Source: Eledone cirrhosa
Taxonomy: Eukaryota
DNA length: 64,000 nucleotides
Direction: 5' to 3'
NCBI GenBank assembly: GCA_964016885.1
Contig: OZ024740.1
Location: 140,244,001 to 140,308,000 of the forward strand
Shown: positions 13,894 through 54,446 of the stretch, piece by piece
How the letters are laid out: the number at the start of each line of letters is the position of its first letter
Position numbering within the stretch: the first letter of the stretch is position 1
Notes under the pieces: model-generated
Seen by the model: only the letters and a program-made list of their open reading frames with translations
The model's database searches: none
Told to the model about the DNA's origin: nothing
Position numbers and translations under genes: made by a program

Positions 13894-13973
<80 letters not shown>

Positions 13974-14119
13974 GTTTCGTTATTTGTTTTTATCGTCTCC
14001 GTTGAACCGGTACGTACTCACACTCTATGCAAATTAGTCTGCCCACTACTAATTTTCATAGAAAAAGCATATAACGATATGTGCTTTTACGATTCTCCAG
14101 AAAGGCCGGTAGATAGGTA

Positions 14120-14164
14120 AATATTGCTGATGAGTTGTAACAACAACGAAACTAGTTCATTATT
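14120..14164 (+). ncRNA. Minimal type-I hammerhead ribozyme motif
   Basis: aatattg-CTGATGA-gttg-taacaa-caac-GAAA-CTAG-TT-cattatt. Stem II is perfect, stem III is the palindrome ACTAGT, the cleavage triplet is GUU, and stem I has one mismatch. Confidence 0.65.
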
Positions 14165-14413
14165 CCTTGTCTGGCTTTCTGGGGAATAGAGGAAAGGTGT
14201 TTCCTCAAAAACCAGTATGACTCTAAAAACCGGTTTGTCTGTGTGTTTACATACAGAATAGCTGGACACTCACGGTAAAGTGACCAGTGAAAAACTTGGT
14301 ACATCTACAAATGTATACGTGTGTGTATTCATATGCATACTAGTATTTCAGTATACATATGTGGATGTACATTTTTAACTTAATTGTTCATATATATATA
14401 TATATATATACAT

Positions 14414-22417: not shown

Positions 22418-25400
22418 CTATAGTCTGATGTAGAGTGAAGGCCCATTCACACGGGCCATTCTCGCCACTTTCACCCATCTTTCATAGAAACGGCTGGGGT
22501 GCAGCACCTCTCTCTCCATCCTGATCCTTCTTCCGAAATGATATCGGAAGAAACGGACCAGTTGTTGGCCAGAGAGAAAGGTGCCCGACCTCAGTCCTTT
22601 CAGACGCGTCCACCATACAACCTCTTTCGCCATGGCTATTACGCACAGAAACACCGCCTCTGCTTCATCTTTGAAGGGGGGAGGCGGCTTGATCATTACA
22701 ATAGACTCGGTGGTCAACCGGATCGGTCCCACCCTTGACAGCAGTTGTTCGACATAGCCCCACAGATCGGCTACGCCCGAGCAGTGTACTAATGCGTGTG
22801 CAACGGTTTCCTCGTCGCACACGCATCTGGGACAGATCTTTTTGGCGGGGTCCCTACCCGGGCGCCCGTGTCTGTAGAGCCTTTCTCGAACGGGTAAAGC
22901 CCCTCGGTAGCACTGCCAGGCCAGGGACTTCTGGAAGTTGTCCATAGGTCCCGGGCTGAATGTCCTACCGAACAGGCTGGCCAGTTCGTCCTCCTCCATG
23001 TCTAGGGCTTCTCCGAGGGCGTCGTCGCACCTGCTGCGTACCAGCCCTCTATAGAATGTTGCGGTGGAGTCTCCACTGATAACCGGATCCGCCTGCCAGA
23101 GGGCGGTGAGCGCCTGGGCACACTCAGTGTGCCAGGCGCCCAGTTTTCTCGGTCTTTGCTTGACCCAGGATTGCAGCTCGGTGAGTGAGACGAGTCTGGG
23201 AAAGGTTCGTCTCACAAACGAGGCCCACACCGGTTGTCCGGTGAGGAATACGTAGAGGTGCCGTAGCCTTAATGCGTGTTTACGCATCATTAGCCACGGC
23301 ATCCCCAGCCCTCCTTTCGAAGGGTGTTGACAGCAGATGGATCTCCTCACCATAGGAGCCCGCCTCTTCCAAAGGAATTGGAAGAGCGCGCGCTCCATCT
23401 TGGTGAGGGTTTCCCTTGGGCAGGGCACTACGGTCAGGCGGTAGTAGATGACGGACGCTATGTAGGTGTTCGCCACCTCCGCCCGACCTTTCAGGGATAG
23501 TTTGCAACTGGCCCACTTCTGGGTCAGTGCAAACACCCTGTTCGTAACCTCCGCCCAGTTTTTCTCCACCTGGAGGTCCGGTCCGAACCAGACCCCGAGC
23601 AACTTCACCGGGCCCTCCGTCCAGCGTCCGACGACGCTATCGGAGGGCATCGGTCTGCCCCTCCACGTGCCGAGTTGCAAACCGATCGACTTGTCCCGGT
23701 TCAGCTTAGCCCCTGTGAACTTTTCGTACTCCTCCAGTAAGGTGCCGACCGCCTCGATTTCGGAGGCCGTCGACACCATTACTGTCACGTCATCGGCGTA
23801 GGCCGACACCGCTTTCCGCAATCCCGGTTCCAAAGGGATGCCCTGCAACAACTCCAACTTCCGCAGTAGTGGCTCGAGAGTCAACACATACAGAAGGGAG
23901 GAGAGAGGGCACCCTTGTCGGATGGACCGCGCGATTTTGAACGGCTCCGAGAGGTAGCCGTTCACCTTGACCCTAGAGCAGATGCGGCTGCTGTGCATAG
24001 CAGTGATCCAGCCCCTGAAAACGTGTCCGAAGCCTGCCGCCGCTAGCACCGCATCCAGGTAACCATGGTCGACCCTATCGAACGCCTTAGATTGATCCAA
24101 GTTGATCAGAGCCCCACCAAAGCCGGGTTCGTTCCCAACCCTCTCTATGATGTATCGCATGAGGTGGAGGTTGTCATGGATGGACCTGGACGGGATAGCG
24201 CATGTCTGCGCATCTCCCACCAGGTTGCCCACGACAAGCGCCAACCTCTTTGCTAGCACCTTGGCCAAAATCTGTAACTCTGTATTTAGCAGTGTTATGG
24301 GCCTGAAGTTACTTATTTCGTCCCCCTTGTTCTCGTCCTTCCTCACTAGCGTGACTACGCCCTTGGTCACAGTACAGGGAATTCTCCCGTTCTGTTGCCA
24401 GTTGCAGTAGACCGCCTCGAGGAGATCGGGGAACAAGTCCGGCATAGCTAGATATAATTCGTAAGGAAGACCATCGAGACCCGGGGATTTGCGTTTGCCG
24501 CATTGGCTCAGCACGTCCTCTATCTCAGCGGCCGAAATCGGCTCCTCGCAGGACTTCGCCTCCCTGTCCGAGAGGCGCGCAGGCCGTCGAGGTATGGACC
24601 GAAGTCCACGTTCCCAACCGGCTCCCCGCCCCTCCCGAACAATCCGGCAAAGTGCCTTTGAAAGGCCTCACACATCTGCTTAGGCTCAAGAATCGCCCGT
24701 CCATCCAGGTCTCGCAAAGACCGGATGGTGGATTTAGTTCCACTGTTGGCCTCTGTCACGCGGGCCCAGCTAACAGCTTTAGTCCCCTCGTTCCCTAGAG
24801 CACGTATTTTACTTCGGACAACGCAGCCTTCGTGCTTCGCGTCGAAAAACTGGCTCAAAGCCGTTCTCGACGCTAGCACTCTGGCCACGTCGCCGCTTCT
24901 AATTGCCTCTTCTACTCTATCTATTAGCTCCCTTTCGTTCCTATTCCTATCCGCAGCTAGAACCTTACTAAATTCTATCGAGACTACTCTAATCTCTCTC
25001 TTTAGAGATACCCACCACCTGCTGTTGACGATCGCTCCAGTCAACCGTTCCTTAACTAACGTACTAATCCGATTCCTGTAGGCTCTACTTGCCGGCAAGG
25101 ACAAGTTGAGCTTCCAGTAACCGGGGCCCTGTCTATGAGTTCTGTCAAGGTTGACCATGCAGGTCACTAATTTGTGGTCTGAATAGCCAACCATGCGCAT
25201 TTTTGGACAACTTAAAAAGTCCTTATCCTTAATTCTAACTAAGAACCTATCTAGGTACGACCTAGATGATCCGCTGCGATTTGCCCAAGTCCAGGTTGGC
25301 GCAGTCGGAAAATCTAGTCGATATCTATCGGCCAGGTCAAATCGACCGATTAACCCTTTGAGGCTATTACACCCCTCTCTATCGGGGCAGGCCCCTACGT

Positions 25401-25854
25401 AGTCCCAGCGTGCATCTAGGATACCATTCCAGTCCCCCACTAATAGCAAGGAGCGGGACGTCCCTAGAAAAGTCTCCAGACGATGGAAGAAGTCCGGCCG
25501 CATTGACCCGAAAGGGCCGTAGGCGGCTACCAACCTAAATGCTCCGCCTTTACCACTGCCAAGGTCCAGAACCACTAGTCGACCCTCCGGGTCCAAATGT
25601 ACCATCTGTGTTGCGAGACCCAGATGTTTTTGCAGCAGAACGACAACTCCACCCCCACCTCCGGGCTGACAGAGAGATGCGTGCATCTCAAAGTCATCAA
25701 AGGTGGGGGCCAGCTGTCGCACGTTGCTGATCCGGGCCTCGCAAATAACCATCACATCTATACGTTGTGACCTGAGGTCATTTAGAAGCATTGCTTGCTT
25801 CCAAGTTGAGCCCAGGCCACGCGCATTTAAACAGCCTACTCTTAGCATAGCCAT
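22418..25854 (-). pseudogene. LINE ORF2 (APE endonuclease + reverse transcriptase + C-terminal CCHC) with a single 1-bp frameshift near 24579
   Basis: EN motifs LNARGL, GDWN, SYLDRF, SDH. RT motifs KSPGLDGL, NFRPITLLN, DQSKAFDRVDH, RQGCPLS, YADD. C-terminal CPRC..ETVAHALVHC. Copy B has gcggcagg where copy A has gcgcagg, a one-G loss. Confidence 0.9.
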
Positions 25855-25878
25855 GTTGGTGGTGAAGAGAAAAGGCAC

Positions 25879-27666
25879 TTACCTCTCTGCGTACCGGGTA
25901 TCGGGCTGCACAATTTCCATTAGGGTGGGGGATGGGTTGTTGGGTGGGGTGGTGGTTTGTGGAAGTGTGGGGGCATCAGTGTGTTGTGTGGTTGGGGAGC
26001 TTGGAGTTGTGAGGGTGTTTGGGGAGGGGGTGGGATAGTTTTTTAGGAGGACGCGGTTAATGGGCCCGACGCAGGGGGGACCCACGTCCTCTTTAAAATT
26101 GTTTTTTAAAGTTTTATAGGTGTCCTGTGGGGCCTTAATCATTTTGAGGTGGGGGAAATCCCCTGCCTGGGTGAAGTTAGGCCCTTGTGTTTTTATTAGA
26201 TTGTTGTTGTACACAATGTTTAACAGTTTTTTGTTTCTTGTATTTATGTATGTGTATGCATGTTTTTGTTTTTGTGTGGTGTTTTTTGTTTGCTGTTGTG
26301 AGCTCTTTTGTGTTGGTGTCAGTGTTATGTTTTGGGGAGGGTTTTTTTTCATTTGTGTGTCTGAGGTGTGTTTTCTTTTTTTTCTTTTGATTGTGTGGAA
26401 GTGCTCCTCCTCGTCTGACGACGAACTAGGGTCATCTTCCGCGTTGGAGGGGAGGGGTATATTTTCGGGTTGTGTTTGCGGTACGGGTGTTTTGGAAATT
26501 GTTTTTGTTTTTTGAGTGGAAGGGATGGGTTGGACATTGTTTTGTTTTGGTTTGAGCTGTGGTGGTTGTTTTTGTAGTGGTAGTTGTGGTGATTGTGTTG
26601 GTTGTGCAGTTGTTGGTGGTGTAGGCAGGATTGGGGTTTTCTTATTAAGTTGGGGACAGACAGCCCTCAGGTGACCTCTGGTTCCGCAGAGGTGACACGA
26701 GGGCCGTCTACCCTCAACGGTAATGTTGATGAAGGTTAGATCATCCAGTATGACGCGTTCAGGGATCTGGGCGATCCTTTCGGGCCTCATTTGAACTACA
26801 AGTTCGAGGCTCGTTCCACTGAACGCGTCACCCGATGCCTTTCCCATGGACACCAGCATGTCATCCTCCAGGTCCAGAAAACCTGTCAAAACCCACCATA
26901 TGTCCATAATCGGCAGGATGGTGTGGATTTTTATTTTTTGTGTTCTTCTACCCATGTACGTAGGGTAGAAGGTGTATGCGGTGGATGTGATTGGTTTGAT
27001 GGACAGTTTCACTGCTGTGTCCCTGTCCTTCATGAGAATGGATAGACTTCCGTAGAGTCTATCCTTCTGAATGAAGGTGATGTCCTTCATGACGTCTTTT
27101 AAAACCAGCTCTATCTCGCTCTGTGATGGTTGAGCTGGTTTTTTACTTTTGTTCGAGATTGTCCTAAACATGACCGTGTTTAGGAGTCTCTGGCTTTTTA
27201 GTTCCGGGGGGGAATGGATTGTGAATGAACCATTTTCCCCGTACACTATATATTTTTTCGCATCCGCCAGTAGCTCCTTCGCTTTTGTTATATCTACTGG
27301 CAGATAGTCGAGGGTTTTCCTTGTCGTCTCGGCGAAGGAGAAATTTTGTTTGTTTGTGTTGTTGTTGTCGTTGGTGGTGTTGTTGTTATCATTGTTGTTG
27401 TTGTCACCGTTATTGGTCTTGTTGTTGTTATTGTTATTGTTATTGGTGTTGTTTTCGTCCGTCGCATTGTTGTTGTTGTTGCTGTTGCTGCTGGTTCTTT
27501 GGGTTGTTGCCATGGCAACGTCAAGTTGTCGGTTAACAGGTGGAGAGAATTCTTCCTCTGGCTGACCTATCTTCTTGACCTCTGCTACTGTGACAGTGGC
27601 AGGGGGAAGCTGTAAGTTCATCTTCCCCTTTCCTCCTTCGAATTTTGGTGAAGAAGCTTCGGCCAT
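25879..27666 (-). CDS. LINE ORF1 protein (gag-like, single CCHC zinc knuckle)
   Basis: 595-aa open frame with CHLCGTRGHLRAVC knuckle, an Asn-rich N-terminal segment and a Pro/Gln/Thr-rich basic C-terminus, lying directly upstream of ORF2. Confidence 0.85.
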   Translation of the reverse strand: MAEASSPKFEGGKGKMNLQLPPATVTVAEVKKIGQPEEEFSPPVNRQLDVAMATTQRTSSNSNNNNNATDENNTNNNNNNNNKTNNGDNNNNDNNNTTNDNNNTNKQNFSFAETTRKTLDYLPVDITKAKELLADAKKYIVYGENGSFTIHSPPELKSQRLLNTVMFRTISNKSKKPAQPSQSEIELVLKDVMKDITFIQKDRLYGSLSILMKDRDTAVKLSIKPITSTAYTFYPTYMGRRTQKIKIHTILPIMDIWWVLTGFLDLEDDMLVSMGKASGDAFSGTSLELVVQMRPERIAQIPERVILDDLTFINITVEGRRPSCHLCGTRGHLRAVCPQLNKKTPILPTPPTTAQPTQSPQLPLQKQPPQLKPKQNNVQPIPSTQKTKTISKTPVPQTQPENIPLPSNAEDDPSSSSDEEEHFHTIKRKKRKHTSDTQMKKNPPQNITLTPTQKSSQQQTKNTTQKQKHAYTYINTRNKKLLNIVYNNNLIKTQGPNFTQAGDFPHLKMIKAPQDTYKTLKNNFKEDVGPPCVGPINRVLLKNYPTPSPNTLTTPSSPTTQHTDAPTLPQTTTPPNNPSPTLMEIVQPDTRYAER

Positions 27667-27877
27667 TTAAAAAAATATTGACTTTTCAACAAGAAAAAAC
27701 TTTTTTTTTAACTATTTCGCCTAAAGGCGTAGAATATTTTGAGAGACTGACCAGATCAAAGTTTGACCTGGCAGTCCCTCTACAAAATGGTACAAAAATT
27801 AAAGTTATCAGACAAGAATTTCTATAGAAATTTAAACAGAACTTACTCAGCAAGTTATACGCGTGTGTCCATCCCAG

Positions 27878-27930
<53 letters not shown>

Positions 27931-27931
<1 letters not shown>

Positions 27932-30900
27932 CTTTCTTTTTATTTGCCACCAGGGCATCAAAAGTGGGACAAGTACAAAGGGGGGAGTTTACATGCAAAG
28001 GCATCCTCAATATAGAGGAGGCAATAACAAGATATAAAAGTATAAAAATAAAATAAAATATAACAAAATAAATTTTATAACAAAATCCTCAATAGGGAGG
28101 AGGCGCCTTGGGGGGTCGCACACACCCCCGAAAAAAAGTGTGCTACCCTTCTCCTCAGGAGCACAGAGAGGGGGTGCTCCCTTGGTCTTTCATCTTCCTC
28201 ACCTATAGTCTGATGTAGAGTGAAGGCCCATTCACACGGGCCATTCTCGCCACTTTCACCCATCTTTCATAAAAACGGCTGGGGTGCAGAACCTCTCTCT
28301 CCATCCTGATCCTTCTTCCGAAATGATATCGGAAGAAACGGACCAGTTGTTGGCCAGAGAGAAAGGTGTCTGACCTCAGTCCTTTCAGACGCGTCCACCA
28401 TACAACCTCTTTCGCCATGGCTATTACGCAGAGAAACACCGCCTCTCCTTCGTTTTTGAAGAGGGGAGGCGGCTTGATCGTTACAGTAGACTCGGTGGTC
28501 AACCGGATCGGCCCCACCCTTGACAGCAGTTGTTCGACATAGCCCCACAGATCGACAATGCCCGAGCAGTGTACCAAAGCGTGTTCAACGGTTTCCTCGT
28601 CGCACACGCATCTGGGACAGATCTTTTTCGAGGGGTCTCTACCCGGGCGCCCGTATCTGTAGAGCCTTTCTCGAACGGGCAGAGCCCCTCGGTAGCACTG
28701 CCAGGCCAGGGACCTCTGGAAGTTGTCCATGGGTCCCGTGCTGAACGTCCTACCGAACAGGTTGTCCAGTTCGTCTTCCTCCATGCCTAGGGCTTCTCCG
28801 AGGGCGTCGTCGCACCTGCTAACCACCAGCCCTCTATAGAATGACGAGGTGGATTCTCCACTGACAGCCGGGTCCGCCTGTCAGAGAGCTTGGGCGCCTG
28901 GGCACACTCGGTGTGCCAGGCGCCCAATTTTCTCAGTCTTTGCTTGACCCAGGATTGCAGCTCGGTGAGTGAGACGAGTCTGGGAAAGGCTCGCCTCACA
29001 AACGGGGCCCACACCGGTTGACCGGTGAGGAATACCTTGAGGTGCCGTAGCCTTAATGCGTGTTTACGTATCATTAACCACGGCATCCCCAGCCCTCCTT
29101 TCGAAGGGTGTTGACAGCAGATGGATCTCCTTACCATAGGAGCCCGCTTCTTCCAAAGGAATTGGAAGCGTGTGCGCTCCATTTTGGCGAGCGTTTCCCT
29201 TGGGCAAGGCACAACGGTCAGGCAGTAGTAGATGACGGACGCTATATAAGTGTTCGCCACCTCCGCCCGACCATTTAGGGACAGTTTGCACTCGGCCCAC
29301 TTCTGGGTCAGTGCAAACACCCTGTTCGTTACCTCACCCCAGTTCTTCTCTACCTGGAGGTCTGGTCCGAACCAGACCACCGAGCAACTTCACCGGGCCC
29401 TCCGTCCAGCGCCCGACGACGCCATCGGAGGGCATGGATCTGCCCCTCCACGTGCCGAGTTGCAGACCGATCGACTTGTCCCGGTTCAGCTTAGCCCCTG
29501 TAAACCTTTCGTACTCCTCCAGTAAGGTGCCGATCGCCCCGATTTCCGAGGCCGTCGATACCATTACTGTTACGTCGTCGGCGTAGGCCGACACCGCTTT
29601 CCGCAATCCCAGTTCCAACGGGATGCCCTGCAACAACTCCAACTTCCGCAGCAGTGGCTCTAGAGTCATTACAGAAGGGAGGAGAGAGGGCACCCTTGTC
29701 GCATGGACCGCGCGATTTCGAACGGCTCCGAAAGGTAGCCGTTCACCTTGACCCTAGAGCAGATGCGGCTGCTGTGCATGGCATTGTTCCAGCCCCTGAA
29801 AACGGGTCCGAAGCCTTCCACCGCTAGCACCGCATTCAGGTAACCATGGTCGACCCTATCGAACGCCTTAGATTGATCCAAGTTGATCAGGGCCCCATCA
29901 AAGTCGGGTTCGTTCCCAACCCTCTCTATGATGTATCGCATGAGGTGGAGGTTGTCGTGGATGGACCTGGACGGGATAGCACATGTCTGCGCATCTCCCA
30001 CCAGGTTGCCCACGGCAAGTGCCAACCTCTTTGCTAGCACCTTGGCCAAAATCTGTAACTCTGTATTTAACAGAGTTATGGGCCTGAAATTATTTATATC
30101 GTCCCCCTTGTTCTCGTCCTTCCTCACTAGCGTGACTACGCCCTTGGTCACAGCACAGGGAATTCTCCCGTTCTGTTGCCAGTTGCAGTAGATGGCTTCG
30201 AGGAGATTGGGGAACAAGTCCGGCATAGCTAGATACAGTTCGTATGGAAGACCATCGAGACCCGGGGATTTTCGTTTGCCGCATTGGCTCAGCACGTCCT
30301 CTATCTCAGCGGCTGAAATTGGCTCCTCGCAGGACTTCGCCTCCCTGTCCGAGAGACGCGGCAGGCCGTCGAGGTATGGACCGAAGTCCACATCCCCAAC
30401 CGGCTCCCCGCCCCTTCCGAACAATCCGGCAAAGTGCTTTTGAAAAACCTCGCACATCTGCTTAGGTTCAAGGATCACCCGTCCATCCTGGTCTCGCAAA
30501 GACCGGATAGTAGATCTGCTCCCTCTTTTGGCTTCTGTCACGCGGGCCCAGCTAACAGCTTTGGTCCCCTCGTTTCCCAGAGCACGTATTTTGCTTCGGA
30601 CGATGCAGCCTTCGTGTTTCGCGTCGAAGAACTGGCCCAGGGCCGTTCTCGACGCTAGCACTCTGGCCGCGTCGCCGCTTCTAATTGCCTCTTCTACACT
30701 ATCTACCAGCTCCCTTTCCTTCCTATTTCTATTTGAGGCTAACTCCTTACTAAATTCTATAGAGACTACTCTAATCTCTCTTTTGAGAGATCCCCACCAC
30801 CTGCTGTTGACAATGGCGCCCGTCAACCGCTCCTTAACCAGAGTGCTAATCCGGTCCCTGTAAGCCTTACTTGCCGGTAAGGACAAGTTGAGCTTCCAGT

Positions 30901-32131
30901 AACCGGGTCCCTGTCTATGAGTTCTGTCAAGGTTGACCATGCAGCTCACTAACTTGTGGTCTAAATAGCCAACCATGCTCATTTTTGGACAACTTAAAAA
31001 GTCCTTATTCTTATTTCTAACTAAGAACCTATCTAGGTACGACCTAGATGATCCGCTACGATTTGCCCAAGTCCAGGTTGGCGCAGTCGGAAAATCTAGT
31101 CGATATCTATCGGCCAGGTCAAATCGACCGATTAACCCTTTGATGCTATTACACCCCTCTCTATCGGGACAGGACCCTACGTAGTCCCAGCGTGCATCTA
31201 GGATACCATTCCAGTCCCCCACTAATAGCAAGGAGCGGGACGTCCCTAGAAAAGTCTCCAGACGATGGAAGAAGTCCGGATGCATTGACCCGAAAGGGCC
31301 GTAGGCGGCTACCAACCTAAACGCTCCGCCTTCACCACTGCCAAGGTCCAGAACCACTAGTCGACCCTCCGGGTCCAAATGTACCGTCTGTGTTGCGAGA
31401 CCCAGATGTTTTTGCAGCAGAACGGCCACCCCACCGCCACCTCCGGGCTGACAGAGAGATGGGTGCATCTCAAAGTCATCAAAGGTGGGGGCCAGCTGTC
31501 GCACGTTGCTGATCCGGGCCTCGCAAATAACCATCACATTCATACGTTGTGACCTGAGGTCATTTAGAAGCATTGCTTGCTTCCAAGTTGAGCCCAGGCC
31601 ACGCGCATTTAGACAGCCTACTCTTAGCATAGCCATGTTGGTGGTGAAGAGAAAAGGCACTTACCTCTCTGCGTCCCGGGTATCGGGCCGCACAATTTCC
31701 ATGAGGGTGGGGATTGGTTGTTGGGTGGGGTGGTGGTTTGTGGAAGTGTAGGGGCATCAGTGTGTTGTGTGGTTGGGGTGTTTGGATTTGTGTGGGTGTT
31801 TCGGGAGGGGGTGGGGTAGTTTTTTAGGAGGACGCGGTTAATGGGCCCGACGCGGGGGGGGGGGGGGGGACACGTCCTCTTTAAAGTTGTCTTTTAGAGT
31901 TTTATAAGTGTCCTTTGGGGCCTTAATCATTTTGAGGTGGGGGAAATCCCCTGCCTGGGTGAAGTTAGGCCCTTGGGTTTTTATTAAATTGTTGTTGTAC
32001 ACAATGTTTAACAGTTTTTTGTTTCTTGTGTTTATGTATGTGCATGCATGTTTTTGTTTTTGTGTGGTGTTTTTTGTTTGCTGTTGTTGTGTGCTCTTTT
32101 GTATTGGTGTCTGTGTTATGTTTTGGGGAGG
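27931..32131 (-). mobile_element. 5'-truncated L1/Tx1 copy B (3' part of ORF1 plus disrupted ORF2)
   Basis: Colinear and highly similar to copy A. ORF2 spans ~28203-31636 with indels near 29669, 29378 and 28890. It is truncated inside ORF1 and abuts (GATA/GACA)n. Confidence 0.92.
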
Positions 32132-34499: not shown

Positions 34500-34792
34500 A
34501 CCAAAACGTGTCTAACACAGGTAGTCTACTGTTAGGGTTTTTGGAAGGGTGTCGATAGTTACAGTTATACTCTGGTGTATGGAATTAACTATCTGCTGGA
34601 TGCTTTCCATTGTGCTACATTCTAAATCATACTTGTTAGTATTCTCTTGTGGGGATGTCCTTATTACTATATTAATGTCGTCTACGTAACGACAGTACAT
34701 GATGAGGTCTATGGAGCTCTCATCAAGGAGATCTTTGAGTCTCCTTTCCCACCATACCATAAAAAGGTTGGCAACGTCATCAGCTATGTGTG
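34500..34792 (-). pseudogene. Penelope-like element reverse transcriptase fragment
   Basis: IADDVANLFMVWWE...YCRYVDDINIV...IVNSIHQSITVTID contains the catalytic YVDD and a PLE-type NSIH.I..T motif. Confidence 0.7.
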
Positions 34793-41002: not shown

Positions 41003-42630
41003 CAGCAACTCTAGCAATGACGTGGGCAACTCCAGTAGCAACTCTAGCAATGACGTGGGCAACTCCAGTAGCAACTCTAGCAATGACGTGGGCAACTCCA
41101 GTAGCAACAACAGCAATGACGTGGGCAACTCCAGTAGCAACTCTAGCAATGACGTGGGCAACTCCAGTAGCAACAACAGCAATGACGTGGGCAACTCCAG
41201 TAGCAACTCTAGCAATGACGTGGGCAACTCCAGTAGCAACAACAGCAATGACGTGGGCAACTCCAGTAGCAACTCTAGCAATGACGTGGGCAACTCCAGT
41301 AGCAACTCTAGCAATGACGTGGGCAACTCCAGTAGCAACTCTAGCAATGACGTGGGCAACTCCAGTAGCAACAACAGCAATGACGTGGGCAACTCCAGTA
41401 GCAACTCTAGCAATGACGTGGGCAACTCCAGTAGCAACTCTAGCAATGACGTGGGCAACTCCAGTAGCAACTCTAGCAATGACGTGGGCAACTCCAGTAG
41501 CAACAACAGCAATGACGTGGGCAACTCCAGTAGCAACAACAGCAATGACGTGGGCAACTCCAGTAGCAACTCTAGCAATGACGTGGGCAACTCCAGTAGC
41601 AACAACAGCAATGACGTGGGCAACTCCAGTAGCAACTCTAGCAATGACGTGGGCAACTCCAGTAGCAACAACAGCAATGACGTGGGCAACTCCAGTAGCA
41701 ACTCTAGCAATGACGTGGGCAACTCCAGTAGCAACTCTAGCAATGACGTGGGCAACTCCAGTAGCAACAACAGCAATGACGTGGGCAACTCCAGTAGCAA
41801 CAACAGCAATGACGTGGGCAACTCCAGTAGCAACTCTAGCAATGACGTGGGCAACTCCAGTAGCAACTCTAGCAATGACGTGAGCAACTCCAGTAGCAAC
41901 AACAGCAATGACGTGGGCAACTCCAGTAGCAACTCTAGCAATGACGTGAGCAACTCCAGTAGCAACAACAGCAATGACGTGGGCAACTCCAGTAGCAACT
42001 CTAGCAATGACGTGGGCAACTCCAGTAGCAACAACAGCAATACGTGGGCAACTCCAGTAGCAACTCTAGCAATGACGAGGGCAACTCCAGTAGCAACTCT
42101 AGCAATGACGTGGGCAACTCCAGTAGCAACAACAGCAATGACGTGGGCAACTCCAGTAGCAACTCTAGCAATGACGTGGGCAACTCCAGTAGCAACAACA
42201 GCAATGACGTGGGCAACTCCAGTAGCAACTCTAGTAATGACGTGGGCAACTCCAGTAGCAACTCTAGCAATGACGTGGGCAACTCCAGTAGCAACAACAG
42301 CAATGACGTGGGCAACTCCAGTAGCAACTCTAGCAATGACGTGAGCAACTCCAGTAGCAACAACAGCAATGACGTGGGCAACTCCAGTAGCAACTCTAGC
42401 AATGACGTGGGCAACTCCAGTAGCAACAACAGCAATGACGTGGGCAACTCCAGTAGCAACTCTAGCAATGACGTGGGCAACTCCAGTAGCAACTCTAGCA
42501 ATGACGTGGGCAACTCCAGTAGCAACAACAGCAATGACGTGGGCAACTCCAGTAGCAACTCTAGTAATGACGTGGGCAACTCCAGTAGCAACTCTAGCAA
42601 TGACGTGGGCAACTCCAGTAGCAACAACAG
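41003..42630. repeat. 33-bp minisatellite, ~49 units, two interspersed variants
   Basis: Unit aatgacgtgggcaactccagtagc(aactct|aacaac)agc, grading into an (AAC/AGC)n tract to ~43000. Confidence 0.95.
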
Positions 42631-43319: not shown

Positions 43320-43700
43320 TTGATCTTATATTTTCTCTTGGTGCCATTTGACGGTGTGAGGATGACTGTATATACCACAGCCTTTGAAAGACAGGATCGC
43401 CCTAGAGGACAGTTACAAGTTGGTGTATTTGGTGGAATCCGTGTAGGTGCGTGTCTTTTTCAGTTGTATCGTACGATGTTAGAAGCGTTGTTATCTAAAC
43501 AGGAATAGCTAACCTTAACATTATGATAGTTCAAGAGTTTATGATATGTGTAGTTGTTACGGAAGTGTTATCTGGTGAGGAGCAAGAATATATTAGCCAT
43601 GTTTTGTTTGTTGATACAGGTACATTGAATGGTGAGCTGGAGCCACTTTTTCTTCCTAACTCTCTTTGAGATGGAGGTTCGCCATGTATGCTAACTTTTC
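43320..43700 (-). pseudogene. Penelope-like element C-terminal / GIY-YIG-proximal fragment
   Basis: HTYHKLLNYHNVKVSYSCLDN...TCNCPLGRSCLSKAVVYTV resembles the PLE HK.FN..TVKVSYSCM.N...CNC..CPL...CL...VVY linker. Contains stops. Confidence 0.6.
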
Positions 43701-44288
43701 CATAAAACCACTTCTTGCTACTAATTCTGTAGGTGCAGACGATACGGTGCAACCAGTCACCGTGTTGCTATCTCATGTTACAATAGCAGATATAACGCCC
43801 GTGTTCTTAAAACGCCAGTTCCCTTGGTTCTTCATTTCACAGTTCTTTTTTTCTTCTTTTTATCGCACCAAAAACCCTTTGATACTGCAAAAAGTCAAAC
43901 TGTTCATATAAGTCAACTGCCACATTATGTATTGATTACTCTTCTGTTACGTTTGTACTCAAACTTGTGTAACGTTTCTATTGTTGGGCGCTACATGTAG
44001 ACGAAAAACAAGCAATTCAAGATGGAGATGCAATCACTTCAGTCCTCACTAAAGAGTATTCCAATGCCACATAGAAAAGTGTATCTCACACGACTCCTGT
44101 ACATATTCTTGCTGACAAAACAAAGAACATATACCAAACAAACACCACCAGACACAAAAGAATCCAGTCTAAAAACATAAACAAAACAACCAATAACACA
44201 AAATACGACATAAACACTGAAGCAAAGGAGATAGCTACTCTCCTTCAAATGGAAGACAAAATGGGGCTAGTCGCCACTCATCATCCAT

Positions 44289-44480
44289 GTCACCCTTAAG
44301 GAACATAAGCCAAACTTCCTTTCCAGCCCTAAATGCTGGCTGATTAGCCCTTCTAAGATTGAACTAGATAGAATTAGTAAGCATATTCTTGACAAGATCA
44401 ACACCGAAATGATAATGGCGACTACTCTAGTCCAATGGGACTCCAGCAACGCCGTCATCAAATAGTCCCATATTAAATGT
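44289..44480 (+). pseudogene. Penelope-like element RT N-terminal fragment
   Basis: VTLKEHKPNFLSSPKCWLISPSKIELDRISKHILDKIN...QWDSSNAVIK* resembles the PLE ITLKDHK.NF...P.CRLINP.K.E.G.ISK.ILD.IN...QW motif. Confidence 0.65.
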
Positions 44481-45392: not shown

Positions 45393-46074
45393 TCCCCCCG
45401 TTAGACTTGTGCGAAATTCCTTCCTTGCTCACATTTCAACCAGGTTTGATGGTCTTTTGTCTCTTGTTCACGATTTCACCGAGTTTATATTCATAGAGAT
45501 CTGGGACTTGTCTATTTCTTCTCACTTTCCGTTGCTTAAACCATTTTGTTTGTTACCCTAACGTCCCCTTTATTTACGTGTCCCAACGACTTTTTTTAGC
45601 CGTTGTTCGCACCAACCTGAGGCATATGGCCCTTAAAGCGATGAAATGCCTGGGACGGTTGGAGGGTCACTAATGAAGGACTCACTTTTTCATATGCACC
45701 ACCATTTGCAACGCGCAGCCATCATTATTATCATATTTACACATAATTTTTCTTCTGCTGCTACCCGTCCGTTTCGTTCTTTGTACCTTTTACCCTTTCT
45801 CGTTCTTTGTACCTTTTACCCTTTCTAGCAGTCTCTCTCTCTGTTAGCCTCCTCCTCAACTTTCACTCACTCATTCTCTGTCACTACCTCTCCTCCTCCT
45901 CTTTCCTCCTCCTCCTTCAAGTTTGACCTGTGTGTAATTCTTTTCTCGCGCGTTCCTGGTCAAGCTGGTATGGAATTTTTTTCTCTCTCTCTTTCGTCTG
46001 CGACTTCACAAAACTTATGTTTACCGAATTCGTAGACCAGACCCCTTCTTCTTTTTCTTCTTCTTCTTCTTCTT

Positions 46075-46105
<31 letters not shown>

Positions 46106-46461
46106 TTCTTATTCTTCTTTTTCTTCCCCCCGTTAGACTTGTGCGAAATTCCTTCCTTGCTCACATTTCAACCAGGTTTGATGGTCTTTTGTCTCTTGTT
46201 CACGATTTCACCGAGTTTATATTCATAGAGATCTGGGACTTGTCTATTTCTTCTCACTTTCCGTTGCTTAAACCATTTTGTTTGTTACCCTAACGTCCCC
46301 TTTATTTACGTGTCCCAACGACTTTTTTTAGCCGTTGTTCGCACCAACCTGAGGCATATGGCCCTTAAAGCGATGAAATGCCTGGGACGGTTGGAGGGTC
46401 ACTGATGAAGGACTCACTTTTTCATATGCACCACCATTTGCAACGCGCAGCCATCATTATT

Positions 46462-46466
<5 letters not shown>
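45393..46466. repeat. ~340-bp near-identical direct repeats separated by a pyrimidine-rich spacer
   Basis: 45393-45735 is repeated at 46124-46466. The whole unit is flanked by (TA)n. Confidence 0.85.
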
Positions 46467-46521
<55 letters not shown>

Positions 46522-46526
46522 TATAC

Positions 46527-46557
<31 letters not shown>

Positions 46558-46584
46558 CATATATATATACATATATATATATAC

Positions 46585-46662
<78 letters not shown>

Positions 46663-46670
<8 letters not shown>

Positions 46671-49600
46671 TTGGAATAAATGCTCTGAAATAGCGATATA
46701 TATGTGAATATAGACATAGAATATTCGAAAATATTCTGTATGTTTATAATAAACATTTTGAAGACCTAATCGCTATAGAATAGAATACGTCACGTATTAC
46801 AATTAGATTCTCGATAAAAGCAAGGGAAGTAATCTACGCGTTTCATTCTTGTTAGAATTCATCAGGACTACATATCCAGTGCTTTTATCGAGAATGACAC
46901 AGCTAGAGACTTATAGAATACTTAGCTGTGTACAGGAACTGGTTTGAAAGAGCGGTTGCCGGTCCGGCAGAAATTAGAAATTGGAATAAATGCTCTGAAA
47001 TAGCGATATATATGTGAATATAGACATAGAATATTCGAAAATATTCTGTATGTTTATAATAAACATTTTGAAGACCTAATCGCTATAGAATAGAATACGT
47101 CACGTATTACAATTAGATTCTCGATAAAAGCAAGGGAAGTAATCTACGCGTTTCATTCTTGTTAGAATTCATCAGGACTACATATCCAGTGCTTTTATCG
47201 AGAATGACACAGCTAGAGACTTATAGAATACTTAGCTGTGTACAGGAACTGGTTTGAAAGAGCGGTTGCCGGTCCGGCAGAAATTAGAAATTGGAATAAA
47301 TGCTCTGAAATAGCGATATATATGTGAATATAGACATAGAATATTCGAAAATATTCTGTATGTTTATAATAAACATTTTGAAGACCTAATCGCTATAGAA
47401 TAGAATACGTCACGTATTACAATTAGATTCTCGATAAAAGCAAGGGAAGTAATCTACGCGTTTCATTCTTGTTAGAATTCATCAGGACTACATATCCAGT
47501 GCTTTTATCGAGAATGACACAGCTAGAGACTTATAGAATACTTAGCTGTGTACAGGAACTGGTTTGAAAGAGCGGTTGCCGGTCCGGCAGAAATTAGAAA
47601 TTGGAATAAATGCTCTGAAATAGCGATATATATGTGAATATAGACATAGAATATTCGAAAATATTCTGTATGTTTATAATAAACATTTTGAAGACCTAAT
47701 CGCTATAGAATAGAATACGTCACGTATTACAATTAGATTCTCGATAAAAGCAAGGGAAGTAATCTACGCGTTTCATTCTTGTTAGAATTCATCAGGACTA
47801 CATATCCAGTGCTTTTATCGAGAATGACACAGCTAGAGACTTATAGAATACTTAGCTGTGTACAGGAACTGGTTTGAAAGAGCGGTTGCCGGTCCGGCAG
47901 AAATTAGAAATTGGAATAAATGCTCTGAAATAGCGATATATATGTGAATATAGACATAGAATATTCGAAAATATTCTGTATGTTTATAATAAACATTTTG
48001 AAGACCTAATCGCTATAGAATAGAATACGTCACGTATTACAATTAGATTCTCGATAAAAGCAAGGGAAGTAATCTACGCGTTTCATTCTTGTTAGAATTC
48101 ATCAGGACTACATATCCAGTGCTTTTATCGAGAATGACACAGCTAGAGACTTATAGAATACTTAGCTGTGTACAGGAACTGGTTTGAAAGAGCGGTTGCC
48201 GGTCCGGCAGAAATTAGAAATTGGAATAAATGCTCTGAAATAGCGATATATATGTGAATATAGACATAGAATATTCGAAAATATTCTGTATGTTTATAAT
48301 AAACATTTTGAAGACCTAATCGCTATAGAATAGAATACGTCACGTATTACAATTAGATTCTCGATAAAAGCAAGGGAAGTAATCTACGCGTTTCATTCTT
48401 GTTAGAATTCATCAGGACTACATATCCAGTGCTTTTATCGAGAATGACACAGCTAGAGACTTATAGAATACTTAGCTGTGTACAGGAACTGGTTTGAAAG
48501 AGCGGTTGCCGGTCCGGCAGAAATTAGAAATTGGAATAAATGCTCTGAAATAGCGATATATATGTGAATATAGACATAGAATATTCGAAAATATTCTGTA
48601 TGTTTATAATAAACATTTTGAAGACCTAATCGCTATAGAATAGAATACGTCACGTATTACAATTAGATTCTCGATAAAAGCAAGGGAAGTAATCTACGCG
48701 TTTCATTCTTGTTAGAATTCATCAGGACTACATATCCAGTGCTTTTATCGAGAATGACACAGCTAGAGACTTATAGAATACTTAGCTGTGTACAGGAACT
48801 GGTTTGAAAGAGCGGTTGCCGGTCCGGCAGAAATTAGAAATTGGAATAAATGCTCTGAAATAGCGATATATATGTGAATATAGACATAGAATATTCGAAA
48901 ATATTCTGTATGTTTATAATAAACATTTTGAAGACCTAATCGCTATAGAATAGAATACGTCACGTATTACAATTAGATTCTCGATAAAAGCAAGGGAAGT
49001 AATCTACGCGTTTCATTCTTGTTAGAATTCATCAGGACTACATATCCAGTGCTTTTATCGAGAATGACACAGCTAGAGACTTATAGAATACTTAGCTGTG
49101 TACAGGAACTGGTTTGAAAGAGCGGTTGCCGGTCCGGCAGAAATTAGAAATTGGAATAAATGCTCTGAAATAGCGATATATATGTGAATATAGACATAGA
49201 ATATTCGAAAATATTCTGTATGTTTATAATAAACATTTTGAAGACCTAATCGCTATAGAATAGAATACGTCACGTATTACAATTAGATTCTCGATAAAAG
49301 CAAGGGAAGTAATCTACGCGTTTCATTCTTGTTAGAATTCATCAGGACTACATATCCAGTGCTTTTATCGAGAATGACACAGCTAGAGACTTATAGAATA
49401 CTTAGCTGTGTACAGGAACTGGTTTGAAAGAGCGGTTGCCGGTCCGGCAGAAATTAGAAATTGGAATAAATGCTCTGAAATAGCGATATATATGTGAATA
49501 TAGACATAGAATATTCGAAAATATTCTGTATGTTTATAATAAACATTTTGAAGACCTAATCGCTATAGAATAGAATACGTCACGTATTACAATTAGATTC

Positions 49601-52600
49601 TCGATAAAAGCAAGGGAAGTAATCTACGCGTTTCATTCTTGTTAGAATTCATCAGGACTACATATCCAGTGCTTTTATCGAGAATGACACAGCTAGAGAC
49701 TTATAGAATACTTAGCTGTGTACAGGAACTGGTTTGAAAGAGCGGTTGCCGGTCCGGCAGAAATTAGAAATTGGAATAAATGCTCTGAAATAGCGATATA
49801 TATGTGAATATAGACATAGAATATTCGAAAATATTCTGTATGTTTATAATAAACATTTTGAAGACCTAATCGCTATAGAATAGAATACGTCACGTATTAC
49901 AATTAGATTCTCGATAAAAGCAAGGGAAGTAATCTACGCGTTTCATTCTTGTTAGAATTCATCAGGACTACATATCCAGTGCTTTTATCGAGAATGACAC
50001 AGCTAGAGACTTATAGAATACTTAGCTGTGTACAGGAACTGGTTTGAAAGAGCGGTTGCCGGTCCGGCAGAAATTAGAAATTGGAATAAATGCTCTGAAA
50101 TAGCGATATATATGTGAATATAGACATAGAATATTCGAAAATATTCTGTATGTTTATAATAAACATTTTGAAGACCTAATCGCTATAGAATAGAATACGT
50201 CACGTATTACAATTAGATTCTCGATAAAAGCAAGGGAAGTAATCTACGCGTTTCATTCTTGTTAGAATTCATCAGGACTACATATCCAGTGCTTTTATCG
50301 AGAATGACACAGCTAGAGACTTATAGAATACTTAGCTGTGTACAGGAACTGGTTTGAAAGAGCGGTTGCCGGTCCGGCAGAAATTAGAAATTGGAATAAA
50401 TGCTCTGAAATAGCGATATATATGTGAATATAGACATAGAATATTCGAAAATATTCTGTATGTTTATAATAAACATTTTGAAGACCTAATCGCTATAGAA
50501 TAGAATACGTCACGTATTACAATTAGATTCTCGATAAAAGCAAGGGAAGTAATCTACGCGTTTCATTCTTGTTAGAATTCATCAGGACTACATATCCAGT
50601 GCTTTTATCGAGAATGACACAGCTAGAGACTTATAGAATACTTAGCTGTGTACAGGAACTGGTTTGAAAGAGCGGTTGCCGGTCCGGCAGAAATTAGAAA
50701 TTGGAATAAATGCTCTGAAATAGCGATATATATGTGAATATAGACATAGAATATTCGAAAATATTCTGTATGTTTATAATAAACATTTTGAAGACCTAAT
50801 CGCTATAGAATAGAATACGTCACGTATTACAATTAGATTCTCGATAAAAGCAAGGGAAGTAATCTACGCGTTTCATTCTTGTTAGAATTCATCAGGACTA
50901 CATATCCAGTGCTTTTATCGAGAATGACACAGCTAGAGACTTATAGAATACTTAGCTGTGTACAGGAACTGGTTTGAAAGAGCGGTTGCCGGTCCGGCAG
51001 AAATTAGAAATTGGAATAAATGCTCTGAAATAGCGATATATATGTGAATATAGACATAGAATATTCGAAAATATTCTGTATGTTTATAATAAACATTTTG
51101 AAGACCTAATCGCTATAGAATAGAATACGTCACGTATTACAATTAGATTCTCGATAAAAGCAAGGGAAGTAATCTACGCGTTTCATTCTTGTTAGAATTC
51201 ATCAGGACTACATATCCAGTGCTTTTATCGAGAATGACACAGCTAGAGACTTATAGAATACTTAGCTGTGTACAGGAACTGGTTTGAAAGAGCGGTTGCC
51301 GGTCCGGCAGAAATTAGAAATTGGAATAAATGCTCTGAAATAGCGATATATATGTGAATATAGACATAGAATATTCGAAAATATTCTGTATGTTTATAAT
51401 AAACATTTTGAAGACCTAATCGCTATAGAATAGAATACGTCACGTATTACAATTAGATTCTCGATAAAAGCAAGGGAAGTAATCTACGCGTTTCATTCTT
51501 GTTAGAATTCATCAGGACTACATATCCAGTGCTTTTATCGAGAATGACACAGCTAGAGACTTATAGAATACTTAGCTGTGTACAGGAACTGGTTTGAAAG
51601 AGCGGTTGCCGGTCCGGCAGAAATTAGAAATTGGAATAAATGCTCTGAAATAGCGATATATATGTGAATATAGACATAGAATATTCGAAAATATTCTGTA
51701 TGTTTATAATAAACATTTTGAAGACCTAATCGCTATAGAATAGAATACGTCACGTATTACAATTAGATTCTCGATAAAAGCAAGGGAAGTAATCTACGCG
51801 TTTCATTCTTGTTAGAATTCATCAGGACTACATATCCAGTGCTTTTATCGAGAATGACACAGCTAGAGACTTATAGAATACTTAGCTGTGTACAGGAACT
51901 GGTTTGAAAGAGCGGTTGCCGGTCCGGCAGAAATTAGAAATTGGAATAAATGCTCTGAAATAGCGATATATATGTGAATATAGACATAGAATATTCGAAA
52001 ATATTCTGTATGTTTATAATAAACATTTTGAAGACCTAATCGCTATAGAATAGAATACGTCACGTATTACAATTAGATTCTCGATAAAAGCAAGGGAAGT
52101 AATCTACGCGTTTCATTCTTGTTAGAATTCATCAGGACTACATATCCAGTGCTTTTATCGAGAATGACACAGCTAGAGACTTATAGAATACTTAGCTGTG
52201 TACAGGAACTGGTTTGAAAGAGCGGTTGCCGGTCCGGCAGAAATTAGAAATTGGAATAAATGCTCTGAAATAGCGATATATATGTGAATATAGACATAGA
52301 ATATTCGAAAATATTCTGTATGTTTATAATAAACATTTTGAAGACCTAATCGCTATAGAATAGAATACGTCACGTATTACAATTAGATTCTCGATAAAAG
52401 CAAGGGAAGTAATCTACGCGTTTCATTCTTGTTAGAATTCATCAGGACTACATATCCAGTGCTTTTATCGAGAATGACACAGCTAGAGACTTATAGAATA
52501 CTTAGCTGTGTACAGGAACTGGTTTGAAAGAGCGGTTGCCGGTCCGGCAGAAATTAGAAATTGGAATAAATGCTCTGAAATAGCGATATATATGTGAATA

Positions 52601-53770
52601 TAGACATAGAATATTCGAAAATATTCTGTATGTTTATAATAAACATTTTGAAGACCTAATCGCTATAGAATAGAATACGTCACGTATTACAATTAGATTC
52701 TCGATAAAAGCAAGGGAAGTAATCTACGCGTTTCATTCTTGTTAGAATTCATCAGGACTACATATCCAGTGCTTTTATCGAGAATGACACAGCTAGAGAC
52801 TTATAGAATACTTAGCTGTGTACAGGAACTGGTTTGAAAGAGCGGTTGCCGGTCCGGCAGAAATTAGAAATTGGAATAAATGCTCTGAAATAGCGATATA
52901 TATGTGAATATAGACATAGAATATTCGAAAATATTCTGTATGTTTATAATAAACATTTTGAAGACCTAATCGCTATAGAATAGAATACGTCACGTATTAC
53001 AATTAGATTCTCGATAAAAGCAAGGGAAGTAATCTACGCGTTTCATTCTTGTTAGAATTCATCAGGACTACATATCCAGTGCTTTTATCGAGAATGACAC
53101 AGCTAGAGACTTATAGAATACTTAGCTGTGTACAGGAACTGGTTTGAAAGAGCGGTTGCCGGTCCGGCAGAAATTAGAAATTGGAATAAATGCTCTGAAA
53201 TAGCGATATATATGTGAATATAGACATAGAATATTCGAAAATATTCTGTATGTTTATAATAAACATTTTGAAGACCTAATCGCTATAGAATAGAATACGT
53301 CACGTATTACAATTAGATTCTCGATAAAAGCAAGGGAAGTAATCTACGCGTTTCATTCTTGTTAGAATTCATCAGGACTACATATCCAGTGCTTTTATCG
53401 AGAATGACACAGCTAGAGACTTATAGAATACTTAGCTGTGTACAGGAACTGGTTTGAAAGAGCGGTTGCCGGTCCGGCAGAAATTAGAAATTGGAATAAA
53501 TGCTCTGAAATAGCGATATATATGTGAATATAGACATAGAATATTCGAAAATATTCTGTATGTTTATAATAAACATTTTGAAGACCTAATCGCTATAGAA
53601 TAGAATACGTCACGTATTACAATTAGATTCTCGATAAAAGCAAGGGAAGTAATCTACGCGTTTCATTCTTGTTAGAATTCATCAGGACTACATATCCAGT
53701 GCTTTTATCGAGAATGACACAGCTAGAGACTTATAGAATACTTAGCTGTGTACAGGAACTGGTTTGAAAG
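46663..53770 (-). repeat. Tandem array of ~23 x 310-bp units, each with a hammerhead ribozyme (retrozyme-like satellite)
   Basis: attagaaattgg recurs exactly every 310 bp (46663, 46973, 47283 ... 53483), and the units look identical by eye. The last unit is truncated at 53770. Confidence 0.95.
46807..46895 (-). ncRNA. Type-I hammerhead ribozyme (first of 23 copies, repeating every 310 bp)
   Basis: attctcgataaaagca-ctggatat-gtagtc-CTGATGA-attct-aaca-agaat-GAAA-CGCG-TA-gattac-ttccct-tgcttttatcgagaat. The core is intact, stem II is 5 bp, stem III is the palindrome ACGCGT, the site is GUA, and stem I has a 16-bp perfect extension. Confidence 0.88.
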
Positions 53771-54101
53771 AATATTCTATGTCTATATTCACATATATAT
53801 CGCTATTTCAGAGCATTTATTCCAATTTCTAATTTCTGCCGGACCGGCAACCGCTCTTTCAAACCAGTTCCTGTACACAGCTAAGTATTCTATAAGTCTC
53901 TAGCTGTGTCATTCTCGATAAAAGCACTGGATATGTAGTCCTGATGAATTCTAACAAGAATGAAACGCGTAGATTACTTCCCTTGCTTTTATCGAGAATC
54001 TAATTGTAATACGTGACGTATTCTATTCTATAGCGATTAGGTCTTCAAAATGTTTATTATAAACATACAGAATATTTTCGAATATTCTATGTCTATATTC
54101 A
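53771..54101 (+). repeat. Inverted terminal copy (~1.07 units) of the 310-bp monomer
   Basis: Exact reverse complement of the array unit, followed by (TA)n. Confidence 0.93.
53911..53999 (+). ncRNA. Type-I hammerhead ribozyme in the inverted unit
   Basis: CTGATGA at 53941-53947, GAAA at 53962-53965 and GTA at 53969-53971. Confidence 0.88.
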
Positions 54102-54446
54102 TATATATATATATATACATATACAATGATATTAAATAAATGGAAACTATATTTATAAAACCATATTTATTCAATTATATATATTTCAAGGGTACCAACA
54201 TTTTGGTACGTTATCATCAGATAAAATACAAAATGTTTTATAAATATTTGACATGACCAAGGATAATATACCTTAACGGTTCAAGTTATCCCTGGAAAGT
54301 GAAGGGAAGAGAGAAAACAGATATTTAAAATTATTAATATGAGTATGCATTGAATATTTACCCCAGAAAGCTGTCGAGTGCTCTGAATCAGTTACAAACA
54401 TTTATATTTATTTGTCGTATTTCCAACAAATTAAATATCCCTTCTA

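Follow-up and report, generated by a model that had tools for sequence, protein, structure and literature searches.

Retrozymes without LTRs have been described in metazoans, i.e. in coral, mussel (350-390 bp) and axolotl (Rtz_331, with the hammerhead HHR_Amex1; text of Cervera & de la Pena 2020, PMC7229834). Their RNA was demonstrated, and their mobilisation by Penelope-like elements (PLEs) was proposed from co-occurrence. A preprint (main text of bioRxiv 10.64898/2026.07.22.740005) argues from vertebrate co-distribution and pLTR homology that retrozymes are non-autonomous PLE derivatives; it favours local tandem amplification after insertion, and it reports that 8 of 9 frog retrozyme dimers failed to cleave. 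PLE insertions are marked by partial tandems, an inverted 5'-truncated copy and a 30-40-bp tail, and the Hydra and Naiad clades of PLEs have a (TA)n target (Craig et al. 2021, PMC8557442, in the sections used here). In the experiments with Anolis Poseidon on which we draw (Frangieh et al. 2024, PMC11167929), purified PLE protein introduced nicks in both strands and extended them, two internal RNA start sites bounded the tail, and insertion took place without a need for ribozyme cleavage, uncleaved RNA being the main substrate.

We analysed an array in a window of 64,000 nucleotides from Eledone cirrhosa, and we give a probability of about 0.7 to the reading that it represents a single insertion of a non-coding hammerhead retrozyme, young and 310 bp long, with an RNA that is predicted to be circular, copied into (TA)n by a PLE enzyme. 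The class to which the family belongs, metazoan non-LTR retrozymes, is already described (PMC7229834 and bioRxiv 10.64898/2026.07.22.740005, in the parts considered), and the family in the window is a new member. It consists of dispersed, non-coding, self-paired, low-GC head-to-tail repeats with a hammerhead in each unit, at a length within the range of about 150-450 bp that characterises such retrozymes. It resembles those in the text of PMC7229834 in having non-coding tandem units of about 300 bp with a GC content below 45% and a type I hammerhead per unit, in the weak stem III, the palindromic tetraloop and the self-paired monomer, and in the thousands of copies with PLEs in the same genome. 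The RNA of those retrozymes was demonstrated, whereas the E. cirrhosa unit is known here from DNA alone. The features of the locus are listed below; positions within the unit run from +1 to +310, counted from the cleavage site along the ribozyme strand.

46465..46662, no strand: left (TA)n target tract
46663..53771, minus strand (the ribozyme strand): main arm of 22.9 identical 310-bp units; outer end about +172 past the cleavage site (long end), inner end +194
46670..46705, minus strand: 'tail', +130 to +165, the segment separating the two fixed insertion ends
46709..46749, minus strand: long hairpin, +86 to +126, immediately 5' of the short end
46807..46895, minus strand: 16-bp helix, 46807-46822 with 46880-46895, prolonging stem I past an internal loop
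46829..46871, minus strand: first type I hammerhead (stem I, CUGAUGA, stem II, GAAACGCGUA), recurring every 310 bp
Between 46835 and 46834, minus strand: predicted cleavage site of the first hammerhead
53770..53771, no strand: inversion junction, a 2-bp microhomology (overlap)
53770..54101, plus strand: inverted arm of 332 bp, an exact copy of 1.07 units, from +109 round to +130 (short end)
53935-53977, within the inverted arm (53770..54101): the single hammerhead of that arm
54102..54121, no strand: right (TA)n target tract

Tandem Repeats Finder describes 46663-53771 as a repeat of period 310 with 100% matches and 22.9 copies, a copy number that is taken from the assembly, and there are no mismatches among the 22 full units. 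A first-pass annotation of the window had reported about 23 identical 310-bp units lying between (TA)n tracts, with stem I extended by a perfect 16-bp helix; all of this holds, and (TA)n adjoins both outer ends. The annotation had also treated 46663..54101 as a single array. Its head-to-tail part is correct as far as 53771, but 53770-54101 is an exact inverted arm that had been overlooked.

The unit has a GC content of 34% and, as the annotation had said, no ORF, with at most 59 codons free of stops in a row and at most 30 in a frame starting with ATG. In this it differs from autonomous PLEs, and an autonomous PLE was rejected as an identity for the unit, which lacks an ORF for RT and GIY-YIG. 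On the minus strand the order of elements is the 5' side of stem I (GUAGUC), CUGAUGA, stem II (AUUCU-AACA-AGAAU), GAAA-CGCG-UA with the palindromic CGCG in stem III, the cleavage site, and GAUUAC. The hammerhead core is complete in all units, so that the type I ribozyme claimed for each unit, with cleavage predicted at 46835/46834, is borne out. Its likening to the minimal hammerheads of PLEs is not; we find a canonical type I ribozyme, in which stem I is extended and the loop is the palindrome CGCG. In the comparison with Rfam that the annotation had proposed, HH9 could be aligned over its full length, but at 23 bits (E 0.004) against a gathering score of 52, and at gathering thresholds Rfam gives no matches in the whole window.

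The monomer is predicted to fold at -73.9 kcal/mol, below 100 of 100 shuffled sequences (z -4.4), with a pair probability of 0.0 for stem III; the predicted fold of the dimer is a double hammerhead. The predicted confinement of stem III to the dimer agrees with the description of such ribozymes in the part of PMC4209133 used here, in which stem III forms in the dimer and is absent from the monomer. Two sister tandem families, of about 490 and 466 bp, retain the same ribozyme architecture. Among nine sequences from the three families, both sides have changed in 10 of 14 pairs, those of the palindrome (CGCG/CTAG) among them, a value that none of 500 shuffles equalled; we note that only three families are independent and that the structure was drawn from these same sequences.

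Dispersed copies, which the annotation had expected, are abundant. A degenerate pattern search for the ribozyme core yields 17,856 matches in the 3.0-Gb genome and none in the reversed control, which at 310 bp per match amounts to about 5.5 Mb, mainly as long inverted repeats. The junction of the long end (+165/TATATA) occurs exactly 1,041 times, and that of the short end (+128-130/TA) 814 times. We collected 105 insertions, i.e. the one in the window, 12 found via the ribozyme core, 80 via the +165 junction, 11 via the short end and one by chance; 104 of them lie on one chromosome-scale contig. Two arms are present in 91 (87 simple and 4 complex), nine are single-armed and five are cut by the edge of the fetched sequence. 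The arms are always divergent, with the 3' end of the ribozyme strand toward the flank on both sides, which is the polarity to be expected of a ribozyme-strand template with priming from both strands of the target.

The outer ends are confined to two narrow intervals. Short ends fall at +125 to +139 in 72 of 72 cases (modes 130 and 139), and long ends at +154 to +172 in 83 of 84, the remaining value being a fetch-edge artefact; the long-end mode of 165 is biased, as 80 of the 105 loci were chosen by the +165 junction. The modal ends, +130 and +165, are thus about 35 nt apart on the unit. Every one of the 47 adjacent divergent end pairs closer than 12 kb combines a short with a long end (85 short and 100 long ends on one contig). 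TA is found at both ends of 65 out of 66 loci (two loci were skipped); in L037, which departs from this, there is a 12-bp target duplication, the only clear one, three other loci being ambiguous inside TA tracts.

The inner ends, by contrast with these outer ends, are scattered over the unit. Of 87 inner arm junctions, 47 have 1-6 bp of microhomology, 14 are blunt, 24 contain filler and two have longer overlaps. The lengths of the two arms, with medians of 901 and 885 bp, show no correlation (rho 0.10, n=69, with long insertions under-sampled), and in 52 of the 69 insertions both are longer than one unit. Inner ends coincide with the cleavage site in 3 of 174 cases vs. 5.6 expected, and those of the long arm do not accumulate at the second priming site, where 11 of 87 are found vs. 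10.1 expected. The extension of both arms beyond one unit, together with the lack of enrichment of cDNA ends at the cleavage site, indicates that the template was continuous there.

The two arms, the tail of about 35 nt and the (TA)n target match the insertion marks of PLEs, and the insertion family is therefore very likely a retrozyme moved by a PLE. Partial tandems, the inverted 5'-truncated copy, a tail of 30-40 nt and (TA)n are shared with Hydra-clade PLEs as described in the sections used of PMC8557442. With Anolis Poseidon in vitro (the experiments cited from PMC11167929) the family shares two internal RT starts downstream of the hammerhead and the extension of both strands; there the strands showed no difference in start site, whereas here one end is short and the other long in 47 of 47 pairs. 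The helper class is the one concluded in the main text of bioRxiv 10.64898/2026.07.22.740005, from different evidence, i.e. insertion marks here and co-distribution and pLTR homology there. Comparing the monomer with PLE pLTRs, as the annotation had advised, we found no alignable sequence or pLTR homology between the unit and either of two PLE families (10 Neptune-type and 5 Hydra-type loci), the other PLEs being available as fragments only.

LINE-1 elements offer a further comparison: in twin priming, each target strand primes a cDNA and the two products, joined through microhomology, leave a 5' inversion, and the second priming site is variable and bounds the first cDNA. In the retrozyme the second site is fixed and the first arm runs many turns past it. 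Twin priming of the L1 type on one linear RNA was rejected on the anatomy of the insertions examined.

PLE remnants, which the annotation had reported, are present in the window at 43328-43627 and 44099-44399, but they are decayed, and two PLE fragments went unrecognised by Pfam; helpers elsewhere in the genome are likelier. The large RT ORFs at 22-31 kb in the window belong to APE-RT LINEs. A young Hydra-type PLE gave 34,758 first-look candidates, and the 150 that were scored are 98-100% identical, many with an open frame of 821 aa. In L221-L225 this frame has the RW and DKT motifs, a CxCX5C linker, together with GIY-YIG at the C terminus, and a hammerhead and the (TA)n target are present; judged on motifs, these loci show the characters that define the Hydra clade in the sections used of PMC8557442. 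A homologue search with the protein gave 18 relatives at 29-38% identity. The element shows the same two-ended geometry in (TA)n as the retrozyme, its ends lying +45 and +132 away from the hammerhead that it carries (both ends in L161, L165, L221 and L224), a tail spacing that differs from the +130/+165 of the retrozyme. It is possible, if somewhat doubtful, that this 821-aa family is the helper; an older Neptune-type PLE family is also abundant. When stem II was allowed other lengths, the ribozyme patterns found 15 and 27 matches, mostly variants of the family, and no PLE coding sequence linked to the unit. The short family 'D', with a near-identical stem II, had no ORF of its own in 16 loci, and its pattern matched variants only.

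Sequence variation within and between arrays was followed in 547 units, from the 77 arrays in which two or more units are complete. These arrays comprise 31 array-wide haplotypes; 20 of them occur once, and the commonest is found in 16 arrays. In 53 of 54 two-armed arrays the same haplotype occupies all units of both arms, the probability of a match between two arrays taken at random being 0.07. Array-wide haplotypes imply that new variants pass through a bottleneck of one unit and that both arms derive from one type of template. No sporadic change is seen in 38 of the 77 arrays, and the window array has 0 differences in 22 units vs. 3.2 predicted by the sample mean. Some arrays are less uniform: L062 and L183 switch haplotype partway along one arm, and in L052, L053 and L071 a variant is repeated in non-adjacent units, so that template switching or later conversion also occurs.

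Within the 43-nt ribozyme, the fold is kept by 9 of 9 array-wide substitutions vs. 28% of all that are possible and 2 of 11 sporadic ones (Fisher p 3e-4); tolerated change was defined by a rule of our own, and L183, being a case of haplotype switching, was not counted among the sporadic ones. This difference supports the view that the ribozyme fold is under selection among inherited copies. The annotation's suggestion that a PLE mobilises the unit in trans, by reverse transcription of the rolling-circle kind, gains support from the genome-wide anatomy, the homogeneity of each array and the selection on the ribozyme, while the covalent circle stays a prediction. Its picture of a single rolling-circle cDNA product gives way to a two-armed insertion with two fixed priming sites.

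These observations can be arranged as follows. Transcripts of the ribozyme strand would cleave through double-hammerhead pairing of adjacent units, and the monomers would be ligated into 310-nt circles. The PLE protein would nick both strands at a (TA)n site, and reverse transcription would be primed by one nick at about +165 and by the other at about +130 of the same template; the long hairpin at 46709..46749 (+86 to +126) is a candidate RT-binding signal. Each cDNA would then run round the template, the number of turns being independent for the two, and the two cDNA ends would be joined by microhomology or a few filler bases. A covalent RNA circle best fits the continuous template, the bottleneck, the selection on the ribozyme and the dimer fold, and it was probably the template. 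Several points weigh against the overall reading: ribozyme cleavage was dispensable for insertion in the in vitro experiments cited, most of the frog retrozyme dimers failed to cleave, stem III is absent from the predicted monomer and HH9 scores below its gathering threshold, haplotypes switch within L062 and L183, and the PLE families compared show no pLTR homology and a different tail spacing. The full proposal, that each insertion records a PLE protein dimer priming both (TA)n strands at two fixed points 35 nt apart on one ribozyme-made 310-nt circle, with the active sites rolling independently, is more tentative, and we put it at slightly short of even odds.

A PLE might instead have used an uncleaved linear multimer transcribed from an existing array, the ribozyme being uninvolved. 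Uncleaved RNA was the dominant PLE substrate in the in vitro experiments cited (PMC11167929), the commonest haplotype recurs in 16 of 77 arrays as from a master locus, and the haplotype switches in L062 and L183 are ordered. Such a template leaves unexplained the 20 single-array haplotypes that are fixed in every unit and in both arms; with such a template, variants that have lost the ribozyme should be tolerated or favoured, whereas the fold is retained in 9 of 9 inherited ones; and the missing pile-up of long-arm inner ends at the second priming site (11/87, 10.1 expected) also speaks against it, so that we consider it unlikely. More improbable still is a cleaved linear monomer with its ends held by stem I, on which a telomerase-like RT would jump from the 5' to the 3' end at each turn. 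The monomer bottleneck and the selection on cleavage would be unchanged under this reading, and both array-wide insertion variants do lie 2-3 nt past the cleavage site (6 arrays with +C and 2 with +T). Against jumping, junctions are uniform in the arrays, the 547 units having no sporadic insertion at the junction and two substitutions at +1, cDNA stops are not in excess at the cleavage site, and related retrozymes accumulate as circles (text of PMC7229834).

The remaining reading dispenses with retrotransposition of ready-made arrays, i.e. a short PLE-end insertion would have been expanded as an ordinary satellite by unequal crossover or DNA rolling circles, or the array would be an assembly expansion of a few units. 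The perfect identity of the 22 units in the window (3.2 differences predicted) could be taken this way, local duplication or conversion is visible in some arrays, and local amplification is proposed in the main text of bioRxiv 10.64898/2026.07.22.740005. The insertion marks argue, contrary to that preprint, that arrays arrive ready-made. Against an expansion, both arms are multi-unit with independent lengths (rho 0.10) in dozens of loci that are less than 2% diverged, arrays with zero sporadic change are common (38 of 77), and a DNA-level expansion supplies no reason for selection on the ribozyme. The 310-step repeat junction was moreover assembled in 4 of 4 public runs examined, and we regard the satellite reading as very improbable. 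These four belong to 20 public runs (18 organism labels, 17 studies) that contain 73-100% of the words of the unit, no RNA run being listed among the matches; on assembly the four gave the unit with 0-1 differences at a depth of 5-34, and two of them also gave fragments at a depth of 2-3 that resemble flanking repeats of E. cirrhosa. Horizontal transfer of the unit to the labelled organisms would account for the matches, but trace host DNA is the simpler explanation.

Returning to the circular template and its PLE-driven insertion, the closest accounts stop short of these structures. The text of PMC7229834 proposes PLE mobilisation from co-occurrence, and here the ends, the target and the inversion are defined; that text reports no insertion ends, a word search of it gave no 'inverted' structure, microsatellite, target site or cephalopod, and the main text of bioRxiv 10.64898/2026.07.22.740005 has no tail or inversion. 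In the literature covered, which included the texts of PMC7229834 and PMC7761336, the main text of the preprint and few subscription journals, we found no cephalopod retrozyme. In the same literature we found no two-armed arrays, insertion ends, short/long asymmetry or ribozyme selection among transposed copies, although supplements may show such features.

The family bears on how animal retrozymes are mobilised, on the role of PLE hammerheads and on the origin of the tandem, inverted and tail structures of PLEs, as these are set out in the parts of the literature cited. As it is young, numerous and only 310 nt long, every step leaves a countable trace, i.e. the asymmetric use of two fixed start sites, a bottleneck of one molecule and the purging of ribozyme-dead variants. 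The same genome has candidate helpers with intact ORFs, and the circle can be tested against the multimer in vitro. If the proposal is true, the unit would be a minimal 310-nt template for reconstituting the double-priming reaction, and the tail, the tandem and the inverted-copy structures of PLEs would come from one asymmetric reaction of this kind. The family would also give the first proof in vivo that circles are the form in which retrozymes move, with ribozyme cleavage selected in the cycle.

The substitution bias among arrays of the 310-bp hammerhead retrozyme family was counted on the ribozyme strand in 77 arrays with at least two full units (in the range L031-L220), by separating array-wide variants, i.e. 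those found in all units of an array, from sporadic variants. A>G changes outnumber T>C changes among the array-wide variants (10 sites vs 3), whereas the sporadic variants show 5 A>G and 10 T>C (Fisher p 0.03 for the contrast between the two classes). In the same arrays A276G and A259G recur on several backgrounds. Possibly the template RNA undergoes A-to-I editing, which would give the A>G excess of the array-wide variants; selection in favour of G-U pairing within stems could instead be responsible, and it predicts an identical bias.

At two loci, L062 and L183, the haplotype changes in an ordered way along one arm. The long-end arm of L062 has A276 in the four first-copied ribozymes and G in the next two, and in the short-end arm all seven ribozymes have G at this position. 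This single case would fit a long-end arm that is synthesised before the short-end arm.

A near-identical 310-bp unit is also found in public sequencing runs (X1-X20) spread over 18 organism labels, which may represent either trace DNA of the host or a real sharing between organisms.

Related hammerhead elements, and other repeats of the window, are as follows.

13970-14390, plus strand: sister retrozyme family, represented by a fragment with a TA tract on either side; its hammerhead lies near 14120-14170
22421-31660, minus strand: two APE-RT LINE copies in tandem, with zinc-knuckle ORF1
near 34691, minus strand: further PLE-like RT motif
41004-42625: 33-bp minisatellite, 49 copies, several frames open
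43328-43627 (minus) and 44099-44399 (plus): endonuclease and RT fragments of Hydra type, decayed and oppositely oriented
45500-46460: duplicated stretch; its two copies, near 45500-45730 and 46230-46460, are offset by about 730 bp
54122-54440, minus strand: older PLE-terminus-like element; hammerhead-like core at about 54175-54220
Locus L046, 100-2200: second sister family, unit about 484-502 bp with an internal TA tract
Loci L153-L168, L123, L124 and L221: element 'D', a short two-armed hammerhead element in TA tracts

The family of the fragment at 13970-14390 also occurs at L182, where its tandem unit is 466 bp, and at L123. The second sister family is two-armed as well and adjoins a main-family array, and stem II of 'D' is a near match to that of the 310-bp family.

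The 310-bp array of the window is inserted in the TA tract that ends the PLE-terminus-like element; we note that the duplicated stretch lies directly left of the targeted tract. The Hydra-clade PLE (L221-L225), the candidate helper, is very young and abundant, with intact 821-aa frames, a tail of 87 nt and a variant hammerhead core (GAAAU-GCGC-AUA). By eye, a TCT(T)ATATT-like motif is common to the short ends of 'D', the 310-bp family and the Hydra-type PLE, and is a candidate start signal.
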